Assembly (NCBI GenBank): GCA_033856675.1
Contig: JAWVEN010000008.1
Span: 151,659-215,658, forward strand
DNA from: Gaiellales bacterium
Lineage (GTDB): Bacteria; Actinomycetota; Thermoleophilia; Gaiellales; JAICJC01
Reading direction: 5' to 3'
Length of the DNA stretch: 64,000 bases
Under the pieces are notes generated by a model. That model worked only from the letters and a program-made list of their open reading frames with translations, searched no databases and was not told the DNA's origin. This document shows positions 13,957-22,040 of the stretch, one piece after another. The first letter of the stretch is position 1. Each line of letters begins with the position of its first letter. The position numbers were made by a program, and so were the translations under genes.

Positions 13957-15648
13957 CTAGCCCGTGCCGAGCGCACTTCGCATGCCTCCAAGCCGCAGCC
14001 GAACGATTGCATCGGCTGCGTCGGCGCTCGGCGCATACCCGGTGACGGCCGCAACGAACTCGTCACGGTCGAGTGCCAGCAGCCGCGCGGCGCTGCGCGC
14101 GCGCACGGTCGCAGTCCTGGGTACGTCGCGGACGAGCGCGATCTCGCCGAAGAACGCCGCCGGCCCGAGATCCGCCACCGAGGCGCCGCCGGTCACGACT
14201 TCGAGCTCCCCATCCTCGATCAGGTAGAAGCGGTCGCCCGGCTCGCCCTCCCTGATCACGACCTGGCCCGGTTCGACCGAGACCGGGTCGAGCAGCCGTG
14301 CGAGCCGCTCCAGCGTCGGCTCGGGCAGGAGGGCCATGAACGGGATGCCGCGCAGCAGCTCCACGCGCTCGGGGTCCACCGCCTCGTGGTCGATGCGCCG
14401 AAGCAGCGGCCAGGCGAGCGCGGTGCAGATCGGGAGGATGCAACCCGTGATCACGAGGGTGGCGCGGATGCCGAACAGGTCGATCAGCGCCGGCGCGAGC
14501 GCCGCTCCCAGGCCGTAGGTGGCGACGAACACGCTCTCCAGGGCACCGAGCACGCGGCCGAGCACCTGGTCGGGAACGACCCGCTGGAGGAGCGTCAGCC
14601 CGGCAACGTCCACGAGCGTGTTGCCGATCCCCACCACCGCGAGCATGACCGCCGCGACGACCGGGTCGACCAGCACCGCGATGAACGCGATCGGCGCCCC
14701 CCACGCAAGCAGTCCGAGCGAGAAGTCGGATGCGAGCCGGCCACGTCCCACGAGGGCGAACGCGGCGACGCTGCCCAGCAGTCCGCCGACCCCGATCACG
14801 GCGTTGAGCGTGCCGACGCCGGACTCGCCCATGTCGAGCAACTCGAACGCCATCACCACGATCAGCACCGTCAGCATCCCTGAGACAAGCGTCTGGACGC
14901 CGAAGAGGCCGATCAGCACTCGGAGCCGTACGTCGGCGGCGATCGCGCGTACGCCGGCCGTCAGCTCATGCCAGAACCCAACCGGTTCCGGTGCCTCCTG
15001 CTCCGCCTCGATCGCTTCATCCGCCTCGATCGCCTCATCCGCCGACCTGTCCGGGCGGATCCCGAGCACCAGCGCCGCCGACCAGAGGAACGTCACGGCA
15101 TCGAGGGCGAAGACCGTTGCAACGTTCGTGCCGGCGAGCAGTGCACCGCCGAGCGCGGGGCCGATGAACATCCCGGCGCTGTCGATGGTGCTCGTGACGA
15201 CGTTCGCGGCCGTCAACTCCTGCGGGGTCCGGGTCAGCGACGGCAGCATTGCAGTCTGCGCGGGCTGGAAGGCGGTCGACGCGACGAGCGGTGCCAGCGA
15301 CAGGGCGTACACGAGCAGGGCCGGACCGTCTGTCGCAGCCACCGCCGCAGCGCCGGCGACACCGATGGCGGATGACGTGTCGCATCCGATCATCACCGCC
15401 CTGCGGGGATACCGGTCGGCGAGCAGTGAGGCGAACGGCGCCGCGGCCGCACCGACGAGGCTTCGCACCAGAGCCACCAGACCGACCGCCGCTGCGCCCC
15501 CCTGGCCGTAGGCGTAGACCGCCAGGGCAATGGTGAAGGCCCAGTCTCCGATGACGGAACCGGCGAACGCGAGCTCGAGCCGGCGCAGTGACCGGTTGGC
15601 AAACGCGGCGCCAAATGCGCGGCCGGACTCGCGGATTCGGGAGAGCAT
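13957..15648 (-). CDS. MFS transporter fused to a C-terminal cyclic-nucleotide-binding domain
   Basis: About 12 TM segments, then GDRFYLIEDGELEV...FFGEIALVRDVPRTATVRA, a cNMP-binding phosphate-binding cassette. Confidence 0.85.
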   Translation of the reverse strand: MLSRIRESGRAFGAAFANRSLRRLELAFAGSVIGDWAFTIALAVYAYGQGGAAAVGLVALVRSLVGAAAAPFASLLADRYPRRAVMIGCDTSSAIGVAGAAAVAATDGPALLVYALSLAPLVASTAFQPAQTAMLPSLTRTPQELTAANVVTSTIDSAGMFIGPALGGALLAGTNVATVFALDAVTFLWSAALVLGIRPDRSADEAIEADEAIEAEQEAPEPVGFWHELTAGVRAIAADVRLRVLIGLFGVQTLVSGMLTVLIVVMAFELLDMGESGVGTLNAVIGVGGLLGSVAAFALVGRGRLASDFSLGLLAWGAPIAFIAVLVDPVVAAVMLAVVGIGNTLVDVAGLTLLQRVVPDQVLGRVLGALESVFVATYGLGAALAPALIDLFGIRATLVITGCILPICTALAWPLLRRIDHEAVDPERVELLRGIPFMALLPEPTLERLARLLDPVSVEPGQVVIREGEPGDRFYLIEDGELEVVTGGASVADLGPAAFFGEIALVRDVPRTATVRARSAARLLALDRDEFVAAVTGYAPSADAADAIVRLRLGGMRSALGTG

Positions 15649-15758
15649 CCGCGCCAGCTTTTCAGATCTCTTGCGTTTTTGATGCGGAGTGGGAAGATTC
15701 AGTCAGTCCGCGACGTCTTGTACTCGACGTGGCGGAACCCGACTGCTCAGGAGGACAC

Positions 15759-15908
15759 ATGGATCCCCAGGACCGCGAGAGGCACAAGCAGAACGAAGAG
15801 CCCGACGTTGAGGCGCACAGGCGGAAGCACCTGACCGAGGACGCCCCGAAGGACGAGACCGAGAAGGACGAGCCGGACGTCGAGGCGCATCGCATCAGGC
15901 ACATCTAG
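15759..15908 (+). CDS. 49-aa highly charged mini-protein with a duplicated EPDVEAHR-x-x-H motif
   Basis: AGGAGGA at 15749-15755, then ATG 15759. MDPQDRERHKQNEEPDVEAHRRKHLTEDAPKDETEKDEPDVEAHRIRHI. The two motif copies include three synonymous codon changes. A strong terminator follows. Confidence 0.6.
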   Translation: MDPQDRERHKQNEEPDVEAHRRKHLTEDAPKDETEKDEPDVEAHRIRHI

Positions 15909-15928
15909 CTTCAAGATTTTTCCGCCAA

Positions 15929-15965
15929 CGCACGAGGGGCCCGGTCTTGCCGGGCCCCTCGTGCG
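15929..15965. terminator. Perfect 16-bp GC-rich hairpin between convergent genes (bidirectional terminator candidate)
   Basis: CGCACGAGGGGCCCGG-tcttg-CCGGGCCCCTCGTGCG followed by GTTT on the plus strand. Lies between the mini-gene (+) and the GAF gene (-). Confidence 0.75.
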
Positions 15966-15980
15966 GTTTAACGCGGTAGA

Positions 15981-16634
15981 TCAGCGCCCGTTGTTTGCCT
16001 CGAGGACGTCCGCAAGGCCCTCGAGCAGCCGCTGCGCTGCCTCGGAGCGCTTCCCCTCGAGCCCGTCCAGGGCCGCCGCGATCCTCGCCACGGCGGTCAG
16101 CCGGCTATCCGCTCCCTGCAGCGCCTCGCGTGCCCGTCCGGCGCGCGCCAGCAGGTCGAGGGCGATCGCCGCCTGGTTTGCGAACAGCCCGAGCAGGTCC
16201 ATCTCCATCAGGGTGAAGCCGGCGCGGGCCGGGCGGTCGAGCACCTCGAGCACGCCCAGTGATCGCTCCTCGTGCAGCAGCGGCACGGCCATGATGCCCT
16301 TCGGCACATATCCGGTGTCCGAGGCGACATCGGCCGCGAACCGCGGATCCGCCGAGACGTCCTCGATCACCAGCGGCTGCCTCGTCACCAGCACCCACCC
16401 GGCGATGCCGGTGCTCGACGGGAAGCGCCGTCCGATCAGGTTGTCCTCGCCGGATCCCGCAACGGTGGCGAACACCAGCTCGTCCGTGTCCTCGTCGTAC
16501 AGGAAGATCGATGCCGCCTTGGCACCGAAGATGGCACGCGCGGTCTCAGCGACCGAGCGCAGCAGCTCCTTGTGGGCGTCCTCGGTCGCAAGCACTCCGG
16601 CCGCCACGGCGGCCGCGAGCCGGTCGTCGCTCAT
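15981..16634 (-). CDS. GAF domain-containing protein (cytoplasmic)
   Basis: LLRSVAETARAIFGAKAASIFLYDEDTDELVF...GIAGWVLVTRQPLVIEDV...AVPLLHEERSLGVLEVLD is a GAF fold pattern. Helical C-terminal tail. Confidence 0.8.
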   Translation of the reverse strand: MSDDRLAAAVAAGVLATEDAHKELLRSVAETARAIFGAKAASIFLYDEDTDELVFATVAGSGEDNLIGRRFPSSTGIAGWVLVTRQPLVIEDVSADPRFAADVASDTGYVPKGIMAVPLLHEERSLGVLEVLDRPARAGFTLMEMDLLGLFANQAAIALDLLARAGRAREALQGADSRLTAVARIAAALDGLEGKRSEAAQRLLEGLADVLEANNGR

Positions 16635-17461
16635 CCCTCACCCCCAACGTTCGATGCTGTCGAATGCAGCACGCTCTTCAGCTGGAACTGCGTCAGCTCC
16701 GGATGCTTGCCGAGGATCAGCGCGCAGATGCCCGACAGGTGCGGCGTCGCGAAGCTGTTGCCGCTGCAGCGAAGCGTTCCGCCGCCGATCCAGGCGACGT
16801 CCAGGTCGAGCCCGGGCGCGAAGAACTCCACTGGCGGGTTCGGGTTGTAGAAGAACGTGTGGCCGCCCGCGCGGTCATGGCTTCCCACCGACAGCACCGA
16901 CGAGAACTTCCATGGAAAGCTCTCGACGGGCATGTTGTGCGCCGAGGCGACGATCAGGCTGCGTCGGAAGTACGCCTCGTCGGCGAGCTCGTGCAACACC
17001 TCGGCGAACTGCTTCTTGGTGGTGGAGAGGCTCATGTTGATCACGTCGAAGCCCTGCCCGATCGCCCATCGCAAGCCGGCAAGCAGCACCGGGCCGCTGC
17101 CGGTGTAGCCCGCCCCCAGCACACGGACGCTGTGGATCTCGCAATCCGGCGCCAGGCTGCGCACGATGCCGGCGCACGCGGTGCCGTGACCGCACAGGTC
17201 GCCCTCCGTGTCGGTCACGACCTCGCCCGTCTCGGCGTCGGCGATGGTCACCGCCGACTGCACCTCGCCCACCAGTGGGTGGCCGGCCTCGACGCCGCTG
17301 TCGACAATCGCCACCCGCACGCCCCTGCCAATCGAGCCGCCCCAAGCCCAATCCCGGGTGATGGGCGTCGGCCAGCGTCCGGGGACGGTCAGCCGTTCCG
17401 CCTTGTCTGCCGTGAGGCTCCACGCGGGGAGAAGCTCTTCGCTGTCGGCGGCGTCCGTCAC
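16631..17461 (-). CDS. S8 (subtilisin) family serine peptidase without a signal peptide
   Basis: Triad contexts VAIVDSGV (Asp), CGHGTACAGIV (His), GNSFATPHLSG (Ser). N-terminus MTDAADSEELLPAW... has no hydrophobic segment. 4-nt overlaps on both sides. Confidence 0.85.
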   Translation of the reverse strand: MTDAADSEELLPAWSLTADKAERLTVPGRWPTPITRDWAWGGSIGRGVRVAIVDSGVEAGHPLVGEVQSAVTIADAETGEVVTDTEGDLCGHGTACAGIVRSLAPDCEIHSVRVLGAGYTGSGPVLLAGLRWAIGQGFDVINMSLSTTKKQFAEVLHELADEAYFRRSLIVASAHNMPVESFPWKFSSVLSVGSHDRAGGHTFFYNPNPPVEFFAPGLDLDVAWIGGGTLRCSGNSFATPHLSGICALILGKHPELTQFQLKSVLHSTASNVGGEG

Positions 17462-17712
17462 AAACGATCGCGGAGATGGGCTACGAGGACCGGGTCGAGC
17501 TCAACGCCCGCCCGCTGGAGGGCGCCTTCCAGATCTGCCAGCAGCTCGGCCCGGAAGGTCGCATCGGTTGCAGCCAGTGCGGCGATCTGGTCGATCGCGC
17601 GCCGGGTTGCGGGCAGCCGTACAGCCGCCTCCACCCAGGCTTCCGGCGCCGGGGGAAGAGCCCGCAGCAGCCGTCCGATGTGCTCCTCGTCGTAGGTCAT
17701 CTCAGTGCTCAT
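17458..17712 (-). CDS. 84-aa hypothetical soluble helical protein (possible sigma-factor partner)
   Basis: Sits between the ECF sigma and the S8 peptidase with 4-nt overlaps at both ends. No TM segment and no HxxxCxxC motif. Confidence 0.55.
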   Translation of the reverse strand: MSTEMTYDEEHIGRLLRALPPAPEAWVEAAVRLPATRRAIDQIAALAATDATFRAELLADLEGALQRAGVELDPVLVAHLRDRL

Positions 17713-18278
17713 GACGGGCCGGAGGCCGGTTGTCTTCCCTCGAGTTGCTCACGAAGCTTGGCGAGGCACCGCGAGATGCGGCTGGCGATTGTGCCGGCCG
17801 GCAGCCCGAGCGCGTTCCCGATGGTGGCATAGCTCTCGTCGCGCGCAAAGAAGCGGTCGAGGATCTCCCGGCACGCCTCCGGCAGGCGCAGCAGCGACTC
17901 CCGCACCGCCAGTGCATCATCGAGCCGCTCGAGCGTCTCGTCGACATGCGGGTCGGCGGGCTCCTCCTCGATCGACTCGCGCGTCGCGGCACGGAGCCGG
18001 TCGACGCAAAGCCGGCGGGTGAGCTGTCCGATCCAAGGCCGGATCGCGTTGTCGTCCCGGAGGTCTCCGAGGCGCTCGTAGGTGCGCGTGAAGACGTCCT
18101 GGAAGACGTCCTCGGCGTCGGTCGGCGAAAGGCGGTAGGCCTGCTGGGAGATGGCATACACGTAGCGCGAGAACCGTTGCACCAGCGCTGCCCAGGCTTC
18201 GTCGTCGCCCGCCCGGCAACGTGCTACGAGGCCCGCGTCCGACAGGTCGTGCATCGGCGTCGTGCGCGGGGCGCTCAT
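17709..18278 (-). CDS. ECF-type RNA polymerase sigma-70 family factor
   Basis: Region 2 DAEDVFQDVFTRTYERLGDLRDDNAIRPWIGQLTRRLCVDRLR. Region 4 SYATIGNALGLPAGTIASRISRCLAKLRE. Confidence 0.9.
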   Translation of the reverse strand: MSAPRTTPMHDLSDAGLVARCRAGDDEAWAALVQRFSRYVYAISQQAYRLSPTDAEDVFQDVFTRTYERLGDLRDDNAIRPWIGQLTRRLCVDRLRAATRESIEEEPADPHVDETLERLDDALAVRESLLRLPEACREILDRFFARDESYATIGNALGLPAGTIASRISRCLAKLREQLEGRQPASGPS

Positions 18279-18820
18279 GTCCAGGCGTCCTCCCTGGCGA
18301 CGGCGACGGCGAACTCTCCGGCGCTGTCGGCCATGCGGCGCGCCTCGGACACGCGGCTGTCGTCGGAGCGGCTGAGCAGGTTGATCTCGACCAGGTGCGC
18401 TGACGCCTTCGCCGACGCGGCTGCGAGCATCGCTGCGACCACCATGTCGGCGTGATGGGTCTGGTCGCAGTGGCGCGCGGTGTCGAGCGCCAGCGCGGCG
18501 GTGTCGGAGGACGTGCGGGCGAGCTCCAGAGCCGCCTGCGCGGCCGGCGGTAGCGCCGCGGCGATGCGGTCGCTGTCGCCTTCGGCGAGCGACTGCATCG
18601 CGGTCTCATATGACGCTTCCAACGTCGCGCTGATGTCCCGGAGCCGGAGCGCAAGCGCCGAGGCCTGCGCGATCGCGCCTCCAGCCTCTGGCCAGACGTC
18701 CCTCGACCGGCGTGCGGCCTTGATCACGAGTGCGGCGGCGAGCTCTGCCGTCACCGCCGCTGCGGAACCCGCGGCCGGCGTCCGATCGGCTGAGGCAACC
18801 CGTGTCAGGAGCTCATCCAT
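18275..18820 (-). CDS. Cyclodeaminase/cyclohydrolase (FTCD C-terminal-like) family protein
   Basis: Start trimmed to MDELLTRVASADRTPAAGSAAAVTAELAAALVIKAARRS..., the characteristic N-terminal pattern of FTCD_C-like all-helical proteins. Confidence 0.7.
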   Translation of the reverse strand: MDELLTRVASADRTPAAGSAAAVTAELAAALVIKAARRSRDVWPEAGGAIAQASALALRLRDISATLEASYETAMQSLAEGDSDRIAAALPPAAQAALELARTSSDTAALALDTARHCDQTHHADMVVAAMLAAASAKASAHLVEINLLSRSDDSRVSEARRMADSAGEFAVAVAREDAWT

Positions 18821-18901
18821 GCGCCGAGCGTACCATCGCGGCTGTGAGGCGCAACGGCGGGCTGACACGGGTTCGCGACCAGTCTTTCACCACATCGTCA
18901 C

Positions 18902-21025
18902 ATGATTGGTCGCTACGATCGGCTCATGAGCGTTGACGACTCCACCGTTGCCGAAGCCGGTTTGGCTCCCGATGAGCGGCTGATCAACCGGGAGCGGTCG
19001 TGGCTCGACTTCAACGCGCGCGTCCTGGAGCTGGCTGCCGATCCGGCCAATCCACCGCTCGAGCGGGTGCGCTTCTGCTCGATTGTGTCGTCGAACCTGG
19101 ACGAGTTCTTCATGGTCCGCGTCGCCGGGCTGCTGCGCCAGGCGGGCGCCGGGCTCGGTGTCCGATCGGCCGATGGCCGTACACCGCAGGCGACGCTCGT
19201 CGACATTCGCGCCCGCGCCCTCGAGCTGATGCAGCGTCAGTCACGCCTGTGGCACGACGAGCTCGTGCCGGAGCTGGAGCGTCAGGGCATCCACGTGACG
19301 GGGATCGAGGGCTGCAGCGAGGATGAGCTCTCCGAGCTTGCGGGGCGCTTCGACGCCGAGGTGTACCCCGTGCTGACACCACTCGCGGTCGGCCCCGGCC
19401 AGCCGTTCCCGTACATCTCCGGGCTGTCGCTCAGCCTCGGCGTCTTCGTCCGTGAGCCGGACGGGGGAGAGGAGCGATTCGCGCGCGTGAAGGTGCCCGA
19501 GGTGCTGCCGCGGTTCATCTCGGTGGGCGACCGCCAGGTGCTGATCCCGCTCGAGGACGTGATCGCTCATTTCCTCTCGTGGCTGTTCCCCGGCATGGAG
19601 ATCGTGGAGCACGCCGCCTTCCGTGTCACACGCGATGCCGACTTCGACGTGTCCGACGAGGCAGACGACCTGCTGGAGGCTGTCGAGTCGGAGCTGCGAA
19701 GGCGCCGGTTCGGCGACGCCGTCCGGGTGGAGGTCTCGAGTGCGATGAGCGAGGCGATGGTGCAGCAGTTGAAGGACGGCCTCGGCGTGTCCTCGGAGCA
19801 GATCTATGCGGTGGACGGGATGCTCGATCTCGCAGACCTGTCCCGCATTGCCGATCTCGACCGCCCCGACCTCCGCTTCGAGCCGTGGCTCCCCGTCACT
19901 CGCTCACGCCTGACGCCGTCGGCCGGGCGCCGTGACCTGTTTGCCGAGGTGCACCGCTCCGACATGCTCGTCCACATGCCGTACGACTCCTTCGCGACAT
20001 CCGTCGAGTCGTTCGTCCGCGCGGCGGCCAAGGATCCGGATGTCGTGGGCATGAAGACGACGGTCTATCGCACCAGCGACGACTCGGCGCTTCTGCCGGC
20101 CCTGATCGACGCCGCCGAGGAGGGCAAGCAGACCGTCTGCCTGGTCGAGCTGAAAGCGCGGTTCGACGAGCGGCGCAACATCGAGTGGTCGCGGGCGATG
20201 GAGCAGACAGGGGTGCACGTGGTGTACGGGTTCGCAAACCTCAAGATCCACGCCAAGATGACCCTGGTCGTGCGCCGTGAGGGCGACTCGCTGCATCGCT
20301 ACGCGCATATCGGGACCGGCAACTACAACGCGGTCACGGCGCGGCTCTACGAGGACTTCGGGCTGTTCACCGACGACGAGGCCATCACCGCCGACCTCGC
20401 CGACCTGTTCAACCACCTGACGGGGTTCGGGCGGCCCCAGCGGTTCCGAAAGATCCTGGCTGCGCCGTTCAACCTCCGAAGCGGGCTGACGGAGCGGATT
20501 CGTTCGGTGGCGCGCGCGGCGGCGGCCGGAGAGCACGCGCGGATCAGGATCAAGGTGAACGCGCTGGCGGACGCAGCCATGGTGGAGGAGCTGTACAAGG
20601 CCTCACAGGCGGGGGCGAAGATCGAGATCCTGGCTCGCAGCATCTCCACGCTGCGCCCCGGCGTTCCGGGTCTGTCCGAGAACATCACCGTACGAAGCGT
20701 GGTCGGCCGGTTCCTCGAGCACAGCCGCCTGTTCGTGTTCGAGGCGGGGGACGAGTCCACATCCTTCCTGGGGAGCGCCGACCTGATGACGCGCAACCTC
20801 GACCATCGCATCGAGGTGCTGGCACCGGTCGAGGATCAGCCCGCGCGTGACGAGATCAACGCGGTGATGGATGCGCTGATGGCAGACAACACCCAGGCGT
20901 GGGAGCTGCAGAGCGACAGTGCCTGGCGGCGCCTGTCGCCCGGCGATGACGAGCCACACAGGAGCACTCACGCTGCGCTGATGCGGCGGGCTCGCCTCCG
21001 CGTCCGCCGGCGCAGCGATTCGTAG
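18902..21025 (+). CDS. ppk1: Polyphosphate kinase 1
   Basis: LINRERSWLDFNARVLELA..., VRFCSIVSSNLDEFFMVRV, two PLD-like C-terminal domains (HAKMTLV..., GSADLMTRNLDHRIEV). The alternative start is ATG 18926. Confidence 0.9.
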   Translation: MIGRYDRLMSVDDSTVAEAGLAPDERLINRERSWLDFNARVLELAADPANPPLERVRFCSIVSSNLDEFFMVRVAGLLRQAGAGLGVRSADGRTPQATLVDIRARALELMQRQSRLWHDELVPELERQGIHVTGIEGCSEDELSELAGRFDAEVYPVLTPLAVGPGQPFPYISGLSLSLGVFVREPDGGEERFARVKVPEVLPRFISVGDRQVLIPLEDVIAHFLSWLFPGMEIVEHAAFRVTRDADFDVSDEADDLLEAVESELRRRRFGDAVRVEVSSAMSEAMVQQLKDGLGVSSEQIYAVDGMLDLADLSRIADLDRPDLRFEPWLPVTRSRLTPSAGRRDLFAEVHRSDMLVHMPYDSFATSVESFVRAAAKDPDVVGMKTTVYRTSDDSALLPALIDAAEEGKQTVCLVELKARFDERRNIEWSRAMEQTGVHVVYGFANLKIHAKMTLVVRREGDSLHRYAHIGTGNYNAVTARLYEDFGLFTDDEAITADLADLFNHLTGFGRPQRFRKILAAPFNLRSGLTERIRSVARAAAAGEHARIRIKVNALADAAMVEELYKASQAGAKIEILARSISTLRPGVPGLSENITVRSVVGRFLEHSRLFVFEAGDESTSFLGSADLMTRNLDHRIEVLAPVEDQPARDEINAVMDALMADNTQAWELQSDSAWRRLSPGDDEPHRSTHAALMRRARLRVRRRSDS

Positions 21026-21155
21026 ACGGCCGCGGCGATTGAGGCGCCGGAGATCCGGGCATGCCTCCCGGATGCTGAGACTCGCGAACGCGCTTTTCGG
21101 TGAGCGTCTGTCCATTCCGCGCGGCGTCCGAAGGCGCCGCGAGACTACGGGAACG

Positions 21156-22040
21156 ATGCGCGTCGCCGTAATTGACATCGGTTCGAACACCGTCCGCCTG
21201 CTTGCCGCACGTGCAGGGGCTGCCGGCGTCCCGGTGCCGATCTGCGAGCAGCGACGGCAGGTTGGCCTGGGGGAGGAGATCGAGCTCCGCGGCCACATCG
21301 GTGAGGCGAAGCTCGACGAAACCGCGCGCTGGGCCGCGAGGTACGCAGAGCGTGCCAGGCGGCTCGGATGCGAGCGGATCGACATGGTGGTGACCGCGCC
21401 GGGCCGTCAGAGCGCCAACGCCGGTGAGCTGCTCGAACGGCTGGCTGACGTCTCCGGTGTGGAACCTCGCGTGCTGTCGGCCGGGGACGAGGGCCGCCTC
21501 GCGTACGTCGGCGCGGTCGGCGCCGCGGGGAGCCTTCCCGAGCTCGTCGCGGTCGTGGACGTCGGCGGCGGGTCGACAGAGATCGCGTTTGGCTCGTCCA
21601 ACGGCGAGCCTGAGTGGATCGACTCGCTGGACATCGGGTCTCTGCGGCTGACGAGGCGCTTCTTCTCCGACGGGCGGCCGCGGAGGGTGGAGGTCAAGGC
21701 GGCGCGCGGCGACGTGCGCCGGCTGCTTGCCGAGGTGGAGGAGCCCGCCCCGAGCGGGGCGCTTGCCACCGGAGGAAGCGCCCGTGGCCTCCGCAGGCTG
21801 CTCGGTCGCAGCCTCGACGCGGAGGGGCTCGAACAGGCGATCGAGCTGATGACAGGACGCACCTCCGTCAAGATCGCCCGCAAGCACCGGCTCGAGCTGC
21901 GCCGCGCGCGGACGCTGCTTGCCGGAACCATCATCCTGGCCGAGGTGCAGGCCCGGCTCGGCGTCCCGCTTGTCGTAGCGCGGGGCGGGATGCGTGAGGG
22001 CCTCGCCGGCGAGGCGCTGGCTGAGCGCATCGCCGCCTAG
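21156..22040 (+). CDS. ppx: Ppx/GppA family exopolyphosphatase (N-terminal two-domain form)
   Basis: Start trimmed to MRVAVIDIGSNTVRLL... and VDVGGGSTEI (ASKHA-fold phosphate-binding motifs). Confidence 0.85.
   Translation: MRVAVIDIGSNTVRLLAARAGAAGVPVPICEQRRQVGLGEEIELRGHIGEAKLDETARWAARYAERARRLGCERIDMVVTAPGRQSANAGELLERLADVSGVEPRVLSAGDEGRLAYVGAVGAAGSLPELVAVVDVGGGSTEIAFGSSNGEPEWIDSLDIGSLRLTRRFFSDGRPRRVEVKAARGDVRRLLAEVEEPAPSGALATGGSARGLRRLLGRSLDAEGLEQAIELMTGRTSVKIARKHRLELRRARTLLAGTIILAEVQARLGVPLVVARGGMREGLAGEALAERIAA

Follow-up and report, generated by a model that had tools for sequence, protein, structure and literature searches.

A conserved Gaiellales gene cluster that pairs an ECF sigma factor and a small helical protein with a cytoplasmic subtilase, a GAF protein and tandem-repeat peptides

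Gene content and conservation of the cluster

The subject of this analysis is a cluster of five minus-strand genes in a 64,000-nt stretch of the genome of a Gaiellales bacterium (assembly GCA_033856675.1, contig JAWVEN010000008.1, positions 151,659 to 215,658), referred to here as the window. Starting from its first gene, the cluster encodes an all-helical FTCD_C-like protein of 181 aa (18275..18820), an extracytoplasmic function (ECF)-type sigma-70 family factor of 189 aa (17709..18278), a soluble helical protein of 84 aa (17458..17712), an intracellular S8 family subtilase of 276 aa (16631..17461) and a single-GAF protein of 217 aa (15981..16634). Next to it lie a plus-strand gene for a 49-aa tandem-repeat peptide (15759..15908) and a minus-strand gene for a 563-aa transporter of the major facilitator superfamily (MFS) with a C-terminal domain binding cyclic nucleoside monophosphates (cNMP) (13957..15648). 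The best explanation for this gene set, to which we give about an even chance, is a transcriptionally switched peptide-processing system, in which the sigma factor and the 84-aa protein would exert control and the S8 protease, gated by the GAF protein, would cut the repeat peptides.

The original prediction for this region, made from the letters and a list of open reading frames (ORFs), had described the five genes as one translationally coupled unit. The ORF list and Pfam bear out all five positions and all of the domain calls, and the four overlaps of 4 nt (18275-18278, 17709-17712, 17458-17461 and 16631-16634) each read ATGA or GTGA in the sequence. Window G+C is ~69%, and the nearest relatives of the window proteins come from metagenome-assembled genomes (MAGs) of Gaiellales, Gaiellaceae and other Thermoleophilia. 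For comparison, 81 related Gaiellales loci were used (L001 plus L002-L081). Neighbours were detected by tblastn with the window proteins and, for the peptides, with a strict regular expression; the frequencies given below are lower bounds.

Conservation of the neighbourhood, on which the original prediction had made its proposal depend, was found: the gene set is kept together in Gaiellales despite permutation and inversion. Of 76 sigma/84-aa junctions, 55 are at -4 or -1 nt, and of 57 S8/GAF junctions, 50 are at -4 nt; the coupling of these genes is thus conserved and not a matter of chance. S8 adjoins GAF in 60 of the 81 loci, usually beside an MFS gene with a cNMP-binding domain, and in 15 loci the S8-GAF pair is inverted to the opposite strand. 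The cluster thus consists of two modules, sigma plus 84-aa and S8 plus GAF, whose linkage survives rearrangement in Gaiellales: at least five arrangements of the two were seen, with the modules staying within a few kb of each other.

The sigma factor and its candidate anti-sigma protein

The sigma factor carries regions 2 and 4 (Sigma70_r2 and r4) and scores 82.6 bits against TIGR02937 (cutoff 42.9), which establishes its membership in the ECF family. Among the 25 NCBIfam models listed, it reaches no equivalog or subfamily cutoff, the best being SigM with 80.7 bits against 190. Its C-terminal tail is poorly conserved.

It had been claimed that this sigma factor has no recognizable anti-sigma partner of a canonical kind, and this was upheld. 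Neither HxxxCxxC nor CxxC is present in any of the five operon proteins, none of them reaches a Kyte-Doolittle value of 1.6 over a 19-residue window, as a transmembrane (TM)-like segment would, and the 84-aa family is without matches to anti-sigma Pfam families. Two of the operon proteins, the 84-aa protein and the FTCD_C-like protein, had been put forward as possible anti-sigma factors, the former as an orphan. It is not an orphan: the protein collection contains 60 homologues, and relatives occur in 183 species-representative genomes. Its gene adjoins the sigma gene downstream and in the same direction in 77 of 80 loci, and the three exceptions end at contig ends. In some genomes there are also paralogous sigma/84-aa pairs without S8-GAF (L036, L057, L064 and others). 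Since such pairs exist and the FTCD_C gene is found in only 29 of the 81 loci, in two alternative positions, the 84-aa protein and not the FTCD_C-like protein is the constant partner of sigma. Synteny and coupling make it the best candidate for the anti-sigma role, and the only credible one.

The family alignment shows a strongly conserved N-terminal motif (EERIxxLLRALPPAPEAWVEAA) followed by an NHLP-like C-terminal half with the helix motif D-A-x-F-R...D-L/P...A-L. Matches of the window protein to NHLP-clan models are below threshold (PF14407, 20.4 bits versus 48; NF038399, 34.7 bits versus 40), and 16 of 19 family members match PF14407, with a best E of 9.7e-9. A profile search of the PDB returned an NHLP leader (E 0.047) and nitrile hydratase alpha as its sole matches, both weak. 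The AlphaFold2 model is an extended helical hairpin (pLDDT 88) with helices at residues 8-18, 24-67 and 74-83. The window protein has no Cys, and an alternative start at ATG 17700 would give a protein beginning with MTYDEE.

Three other ideas about this protein were tried and dropped. It does not resemble the precursor of a classic RiPP (a peptide made on the ribosome and modified after translation), as the C-terminus is moderately conserved and there is no variable core or GG site. Its N-terminal motif is not a homologue or mimic of the leaders of the repeat-peptide precursors described below (hhalign probability 1%). Finally, the window protein contains LVAH, which fits the V-x-[AG]-H site of those peptides, but the family alignment shows no conservation there.

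A promoter-like motif at two fixed places

Cross-locus comparison of intergenic DNA revealed an element, GGGAAGA-N16-CGTC (that is, GGAAG, 17 nt and CGTC), at two fixed places. In the window, one copy lies in the 3' end of the sigma gene ahead of the 84-aa gene (17713..17739, minus strand), and the other, GGGAAGATTCAGTCAGTCCGCGACGTC, lies ahead of the peptide gene and divergent from the MFS gene (15691..15717, plus strand). The exact motif is observed twice in the window against 0.01 expected, precisely at both conserved sites; shuffled sequence gives 0.018 matches per kb. In 73 of 80 Gaiellales loci, GGAAG-N17-CGTC precedes the 84-aa start by at most 70 nt, with a constant spacer, and the conserved M-x-YDEE start of the 84-aa proteins follows 9-12 nt past CGTC. 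The peptide-side copy, found in 51 of 54 loci, lies on the strand opposite to the MFS gene, ~45 nt from the start of that gene, and always with a 17-nt spacer. Counted by peptide, the motif stands at most 110 nt upstream of 60 of the 71 repeat-peptide ORFs.

The intragenic copy persists where the sigma tail changes reading frame, and also where the sigma ORF ends earlier, and it is therefore conserved as DNA and not as protein. The simplest reading of this co-occurrence is that GGGAAGA-N16-CGTC would be the promoter type of the sigma factor itself.

The same element was seen in front of another set of small genes. Proteins of ~57-66 aa with the motif (Q)EIARDRHADLLREA... ("RHADLLREA") are encoded behind GGGAAGA...CGTC (L017 at ~9091 on the minus strand, L039, L041, L053, L056, L063, L068 and L070; L036, L057, L059, L064 and L079). 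Their genes either sit on the opposite strand, flanked by FTCD_C and S8, or diverge from sigma/84-aa pairs that lack S8-GAF, and the proteins have no family match.

The S8-GAF module

The S8 protein matches Pfam Peptidase_S8 at 1e-28. In a full-length alignment with mature subtilisin BPN', its residues D54, H92, N176 and S236 correspond to D32, H64, N155 and S221, all conserved in the subfamily, and the I9 prodomain is absent. The earlier calls of an intact catalytic site and of a missing signal peptide are both borne out, the former by the aligned triad and oxyanion Asn and the latter by the lack of any hydrophobic window. The protein starts with a conserved N-terminal LPAWS extension. Its scores stay below the NCBIfam cutoffs for mycosin (114.8 versus 278.75 bits), QhpE (110.1 versus 165) and PatA-PatG (37.1 versus 421). 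The subfamily to which it belongs has the signature (L/R)PAWS...GHGTACAG...NLSLST...GNSFAxPH and, in an exhaustive search at E<=1e-30, comprises 295 clusters at 50% identity.

Several members of the subfamily are fusions, of the types GAF-S8, S8-Ser/Thr-kinase, helix-turn-helix (HTH)-S8 and ATP-binding cassette (ABC)-exporter-S8. For example, the S8-kinase fusion P0193 has an ECF sigma gene nearby (L087), the ABC-S8 fusion P0208 adjoins a 125-aa NHLP-like, Cys-containing putative precursor (L088), and P0188 is fused to a LuxR/sigma-region-4 HTH.

The window GAF protein is well above the Pfam cutoff (1e-21; 78.2 bits versus 22.4), and its closest relatives in the PDB are cyclic-nucleotide-binding GAFs. 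Three GAF-S8 single chains are known, mutually distant, with GAF domains 37-40% identical to that of the window. They have the domain order opposite to the Gaiellales gene order, and are thus not read-through artefacts. Adjacency and these single-chain fusions support the GAF protein as the direct and probably regulatory partner of S8.

The pair is not confined to Gaiellales. A census of 80 metagenomic S8-GAF loci from one branch outside this order, some of them placed in Anaerolineae by their database names, shows GAF directly adjoining S8 in 66, the remainder being mostly truncated. S8-GAF reaches Chloroflexota and other Actinomycetota, beyond the range of the sigma pair: by tblastn, none of the 80 loci has a homologue of sigma, the 84-aa protein or FTCD_C, and the same is true of the surroundings of S8-GAF in L082, L086 and L169-L171. 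S8 plus GAF is therefore an autonomous module, far more widespread than the sigma pair. In L169, S8 is followed by an M3 oligopeptidase and an MFS-cNMP gene.

This distribution bears on the original proposal, in which ligand-gated cytoplasmic proteolysis would control the sigma/anti-sigma pair. The part that makes GAF the direct partner of S8 holds up; the part that ties the protease specifically to the sigma pair is not supported. In its most explicit form, the GAF-gated S8 would degrade the 84-aa anti-sigma and so free the ECF sigma. The genes for the 84-aa protein, S8 and GAF are translationally chained in the window type of locus, the modules are kept within a few kb in 60 of the 81 Gaiellales loci despite rearrangement, and the 84-aa protein has a half that resembles an NHLP leader. 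The ABC-exporter-S8 fusion beside the NHLP-like, Cys-containing precursor (a weak family match, E 0.094) adds that leader-like domains may be substrates. However, S8-GAF does without any sigma or 84-aa homologue in all 80 loci outside Gaiellales and in the five others just named, and sigma/84-aa pairs do without S8-GAF. The 84-aa family also lacks a conserved V-x-[AG]-H and is unrelated to the precursor leaders. We consider proteolysis of the anti-sigma unlikely.

A variant in which S8 degrades the sigma factor itself, keeping the system off, would have a precedent in ECF54, itself a hypothesis only (PMC8999054 section 3.3), and could draw on the poorly conserved sigma tail. Against it stand the 80 loci outside Gaiellales, in which S8-GAF occurs without sigma. 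The promoter motif accounts, as DNA, for the conservation pattern of the tail, and nothing else marks sigma as a substrate. This variant is very improbable.

Tandem-repeat peptides as candidate substrates

The gene for the 49-aa peptide (MDPQDRERHKQNEEPDVEAHRRKHLTEDAPKDETEKDEPDVEAHRIRHI) was previously unannotated and lies between the GAF and MFS genes, beyond the span covered by the original prediction. It is preceded by an AGGAGG Shine-Dalgarno sequence and encodes two PDVEAH units, which differ at synonymous positions; the peptide displays the anatomy of a cassette. Its Gaiellales homologues have 1-5 (D/E)DVE(A/G)H repeats with charged, His-rich linkers between them, and no Pfam or NCBIfam model matches the family. 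Genes of this kind are found in 51 of the 60 Gaiellales loci with S8-GAF versus 4 of the 21 without.

Outside Gaiellales, small ORFs with [DE][VIFL]E[AG]H were detected in 18 of the 80 S8-GAF loci versus 0 of 80 shuffled controls. The peptides there are built of lineage-specific tandem units, such as VMKPAAKPAAKPEVEGH repeated 5-10 times, MRAPRVDGSDEDVEGH 8 times or KFGKVGKVGKAAKADKTQVKAH ~13 times, often behind a conserved helical leader, and the boundary between units is invariably V-x-(A/G)-H. Precursors consisting of a leader plus repeats are located 130-250 nt upstream of GAF-S8 in L134-L139, L149, L150, L155 and L169-L171. In a logo of the site, Val is present in 96-100% and Glu in 91-98%, with Ala/Gly, His and upstream acidic residues, a pattern that is partly constrained by the search expression. 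As V-x-[AG]-H is the sole feature shared across phyla while the unit sequences are unrelated, it has the character of a protease recognition site.

A further arrangement is seen in L086, where a 43-aa precursor (MSENENLDPTVSDEDVEAH|GIQEDLAATGQDVLTTCGTCIEQV) with a single DVEAH and a Thr/Cys-rich tail is encoded with MFS, S8, GAF and a LanB dehydratase. Because precursor, S8, GAF and LanB sit together, the S8 in this locus occupies the position of a leader peptidase.

These peptides could be given a different role. S8-GAF might be a regulatory or housekeeping intracellular protease like those of Bacillus, and the peptides might be co-regulated stress, metal-binding or hydrophilin-like proteins. 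The Gaiellales peptides are indeed rich in His and in charged residues, and modifying enzymes are missing from their surroundings; the S8 layout, which lacks a signal peptide and a prodomain and includes a conserved extension at the N-terminus, resembles that of the Bacillus enzymes; and the fusions to kinases and HTH domains suggest roles in signalling. Such a role would leave it unexplained that the junction is the only peptide feature that holds across phyla, as a recognition site would, and that the peptides are tightly placed by GAF-S8, the lanthipeptide-like cluster included. We regard this alternative as quite improbable.

Cyclic nucleotides, transport and the proposed mechanism

The MFS protein of the window (MFS_1 and MFS_3 in Pfam) is encoded next to S8-GAF in most Gaiellales loci, and an MFS homologue is present in 21 of the 80 loci outside Gaiellales. 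The same MFS plus cNMP architecture was found in L082 (2714-4420) and L169 (9554-11338). Its recurrence with S8-GAF across phyla suggests a nucleotide-gated transporter, and the protein is a candidate exporter of the peptides. Other cNMP genes by S8-GAF, in individual loci, encode a response-regulator-cyclase, Crp and a cNMP-binding PP2C, in addition to MFS-cNMP.

Nine Gaiellales loci have the arrangement sigma, 84-aa, S8, GAF, MFS (L015, L021, L024, L025, L032, L037, L061, L076 and L078). In these, the gene that overlaps the sigma start from upstream ends in a CAP-type cNMP-binding sequence (...RSATVTADSELRCYGLTSWEFRPLVEGN), which is a further putative link to cyclic nucleotides.

For the system as a whole, four links are inferred: binding of sigma by the 84-aa protein, recognition of the conserved motif by sigma, cleavage by S8 at V-x-[AG]-H, and export of the products. 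The sigma factor, once released from the 84-aa protein as a soluble anti-sigma, would transcribe from GGGAAGA-N16-CGTC promoters. One of these would switch on the repeat-peptide gene. The intragenic one would give renewed expression of the 84-aa protein, which would act as negative feedback, and, where the genes are ordered as in the window, of S8 and GAF as well. GAF would gate S8, with a ligand that may be a cyclic nucleotide, and S8 would then release short peptides from the repeat peptide by cutting at the V-E-(A/G)-H junctions, to be moved by the MFS-cNMP transporter.

A number of observations weigh against this mechanism. For the anti-sigma role, none of the 19 members of the 84-aa family matches an anti-sigma Pfam family at E<=1, and a fold search of the 84-aa model against the PDB gave nothing at E<=0.001. 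The assignment of the motif to sigma is drawn from co-occurrence alone. The inverted loci have their own, different element upstream of S8-GAF, and S8-GAF is therefore not always in the sigma regulon. At the position of the NKFDE motif, the window GAF has DR instead of the canonical NK or NR. Many loci outside Gaiellales are without a repeat peptide, partly as a result of short contigs and the strict regular expression. The composition of the peptides differs between lineages and most loci are without a modifying enzyme, and for these reasons the peptides might represent something else than processed products. The evidence is also computational throughout, and most of the sequences come from MAGs and metagenomes.

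Neighbouring genes and other features

The first gene of the operon encodes a protein that matches Pfam FTCD_C with 58.7 bits (8e-16; cutoff 24.5), covering 3-180 of the 182 model positions. The FchA equivalog is not reached (27.1 bits versus 275), and a catalytic function is therefore not implied. A longer version from GTG 18868 is also open, and ATG 18820 was preferred solely by cross-locus inspection of the upstream regions. Where present, the gene precedes sigma, as it does in the window, or else lies between 84-aa and S8. FTCD_C appears to be an accessory specific to the Gaiellales lineage. As an anti-sigma it was rejected, being missing from about two thirds of the loci and varying in position. 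An apparent FTCD_C-S8 fusion (P0221) was likewise discarded as Rosetta-stone evidence: its Pfam E is 5e-4, BLAST covers a 12-residue motif only, and it is possibly a frameshift artefact, as a gene order of FTCD then S8 exists.

A gene for the polyphosphate kinase PPK1 (18902-21025, plus strand) diverges from the operon, the two starts being only 33-81 nt apart, and is followed by an ORF (21039-22040, plus strand) that by eye resembles a Ppx/GppA phosphatase. PPK is adjacent in the window-type arrangement only (11 loci), and probably does not belong to the system.

Where the GAF and peptide genes converge, they are set apart by a perfect GC-rich hairpin of 16 bp (15929..15965; RNA fold -43.7 kcal/mol, z = -6.3), which is probably a bidirectional terminator lacking a U-tract. 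A scan of 15550-19000, hairpin included, detected no consensus sigma-70 promoter and no U-tract terminator. By eye, the starts of first genes are seen 6-8 nt past TAnnnT-like hexamers (TACGCT-cggcgc-ATG 18820 in the window, and the upstream regions of related sigma/FTCD, S8 and MFS genes), a spacing that suggests leaderless transcripts. The inverted S8 genes have a common GCTGTGCGATGATCGG directly before the start. The single Rfam match was sub-threshold: Ms_AS-8, an actinobacterial small RNA, at 15798-15857 on the minus strand, antisense to the repeat-peptide gene (23 bits versus 48, E 0.33). It is probably due to chance.

Significance and comparison with known systems

The chance is substantial that the system of S8-GAF and repeat peptides forms a family not described before. 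A broader and more tentative claim, to which we give somewhat less than an even chance, is that it represents an undescribed, widespread class of ribosomal multi-unit peptides with V-x-(A/G)-H junctions in Actinomycetota and Chloroflexota (at least 295 S8 clusters). These would be matured by a GAF-gated subtilase within cNMP signalling and, in Gaiellales, wired to a new ECF switch with an NHLP-like anti-sigma and an intragenic promoter. If the proposed mechanism holds, a large family now named only "S8 family serine peptidase" in the databases would gain a GAF sensor, tandem-repeat substrates and an exporter, cyclic-nucleotide signalling would be linked to peptide maturation, and there would be a direct way to find and make short peptides, in large numbers, of soil and sediment bacteria that have not been cultured. 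The poorly studied Thermoleophilia would provide a candidate for a new NHLP-like anti-sigma fold, a sigma/promoter pair and an intragenic feedback promoter. The idea of a protease acting on the anti-sigma, attractive but weakly founded, would be replaced by sharply testable alternatives.

The original prediction knew of no ECF mode of regulation with a cytoplasmic subtilase. One had in fact been put forward: for ECF54 of Actinobacteria, control by subtilase, carboxypeptidase and CHAT proteins was proposed from genomic context only (PMC8999054 section 3.3). Like ECF54, the window sigma is an actinobacterial ECF that lacks a canonical anti-sigma and has a subtilase in its conserved neighbourhood. 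The window system differs in having a candidate anti-sigma, and in its neighbours: GAF, MFS-cNMP, repeat peptides and, in some loci, FTCD_C. The subtilase alone is shared, whereas a carboxypeptidase, a CHAT protein and a 4Fe-4S protein are not among the conserved neighbours. In the papers found by our literature search, ECF sigmas were not linked to GAF or FTCD, the combination of S8-GAF with sigma and the 84-aa gene was not described, and strings of the DVEGH/DVEAH type did not appear in a relevant context.

Modules of an ECF sigma and a soluble anti-sigma, non-canonical ECFs included (Casas-Pastor 2021, PMC7826278; PMC8999054), have, like the window, a sigma of regions 2 and 4 that is co-transcribed with a small partner gene and translationally coupled to it, and the window motif, GGAAG...CGTC with 17 nt between, looks like a cognate -35/-10 pair of the general ECF kind. 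Unlike theirs, the window partner is NHLP/Frankia_peptide-like, lacking a TM segment and any ASDI or ZAS features, and the motif is inside the 3' end of sigma ahead of the partner gene, not upstream of sigma. The likeness to the NHLP clan and Frankia_peptide (PF14407) lies in the C-terminal half, which matches these models below threshold. The 84-aa protein differs from them by its own N-terminal motif, by the lack of a variable core or GG cleavage site, and by its constant pairing with a sigma gene.

On the protease side, the intracellular subtilisin proteases (ISPs) of Bacillus have a short conserved N-terminal extension whose LIPY/F motif blocks the active site (PMC6220982). The window S8 is likewise cytoplasmic, with no signal peptide or I9 prodomain and with a short conserved extension. 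Its extension reads (L/R)PAWS and not LIPY/F, its signature is GHGTACAG, NLSLST and GNSFAxPH, and it has a dedicated GAF partner.

Among the subtilisin-like leader peptidases of the LanP type, which serve class I lanthipeptides, there are cytoplasmic ones such as ElxP. The S8 protease resembles the LanP type in an apparent dedication to ribosomal precursors, and a 42%-identical relative in L086 is accompanied by GAF, a Thr/Cys-rich precursor with DVEAH, MFS and LanB. The difference is that LanB, LanC and other modifying enzymes are missing from the window and from most related loci, that the candidate substrates have multiple units and that the GAF partner is obligatory. A LanP-type cluster is thus seen for the relative in L086 only, and not in the window or the Gaiellales loci. 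With cyanobactin PatA/PatG and the multi-core PatE, the system has in common tandem cassettes of a variable core and a recognition sequence, along with a subtilisin-like protease, which in the window matches PatA/G weakly (E 1.5e-9; 37 bits versus 421). It differs in the absence of a macrocyclase, DUF domain or heterocyclase, in the V-x-[AG]-H motif, and in the taxa, Actinomycetota and Chloroflexota. On the proposed mechanism, the system would be a variant that combines two known kinds, namely ECF sigma/anti-sigma control and a dedicated subtilase for cassette-type ribosomal peptides.

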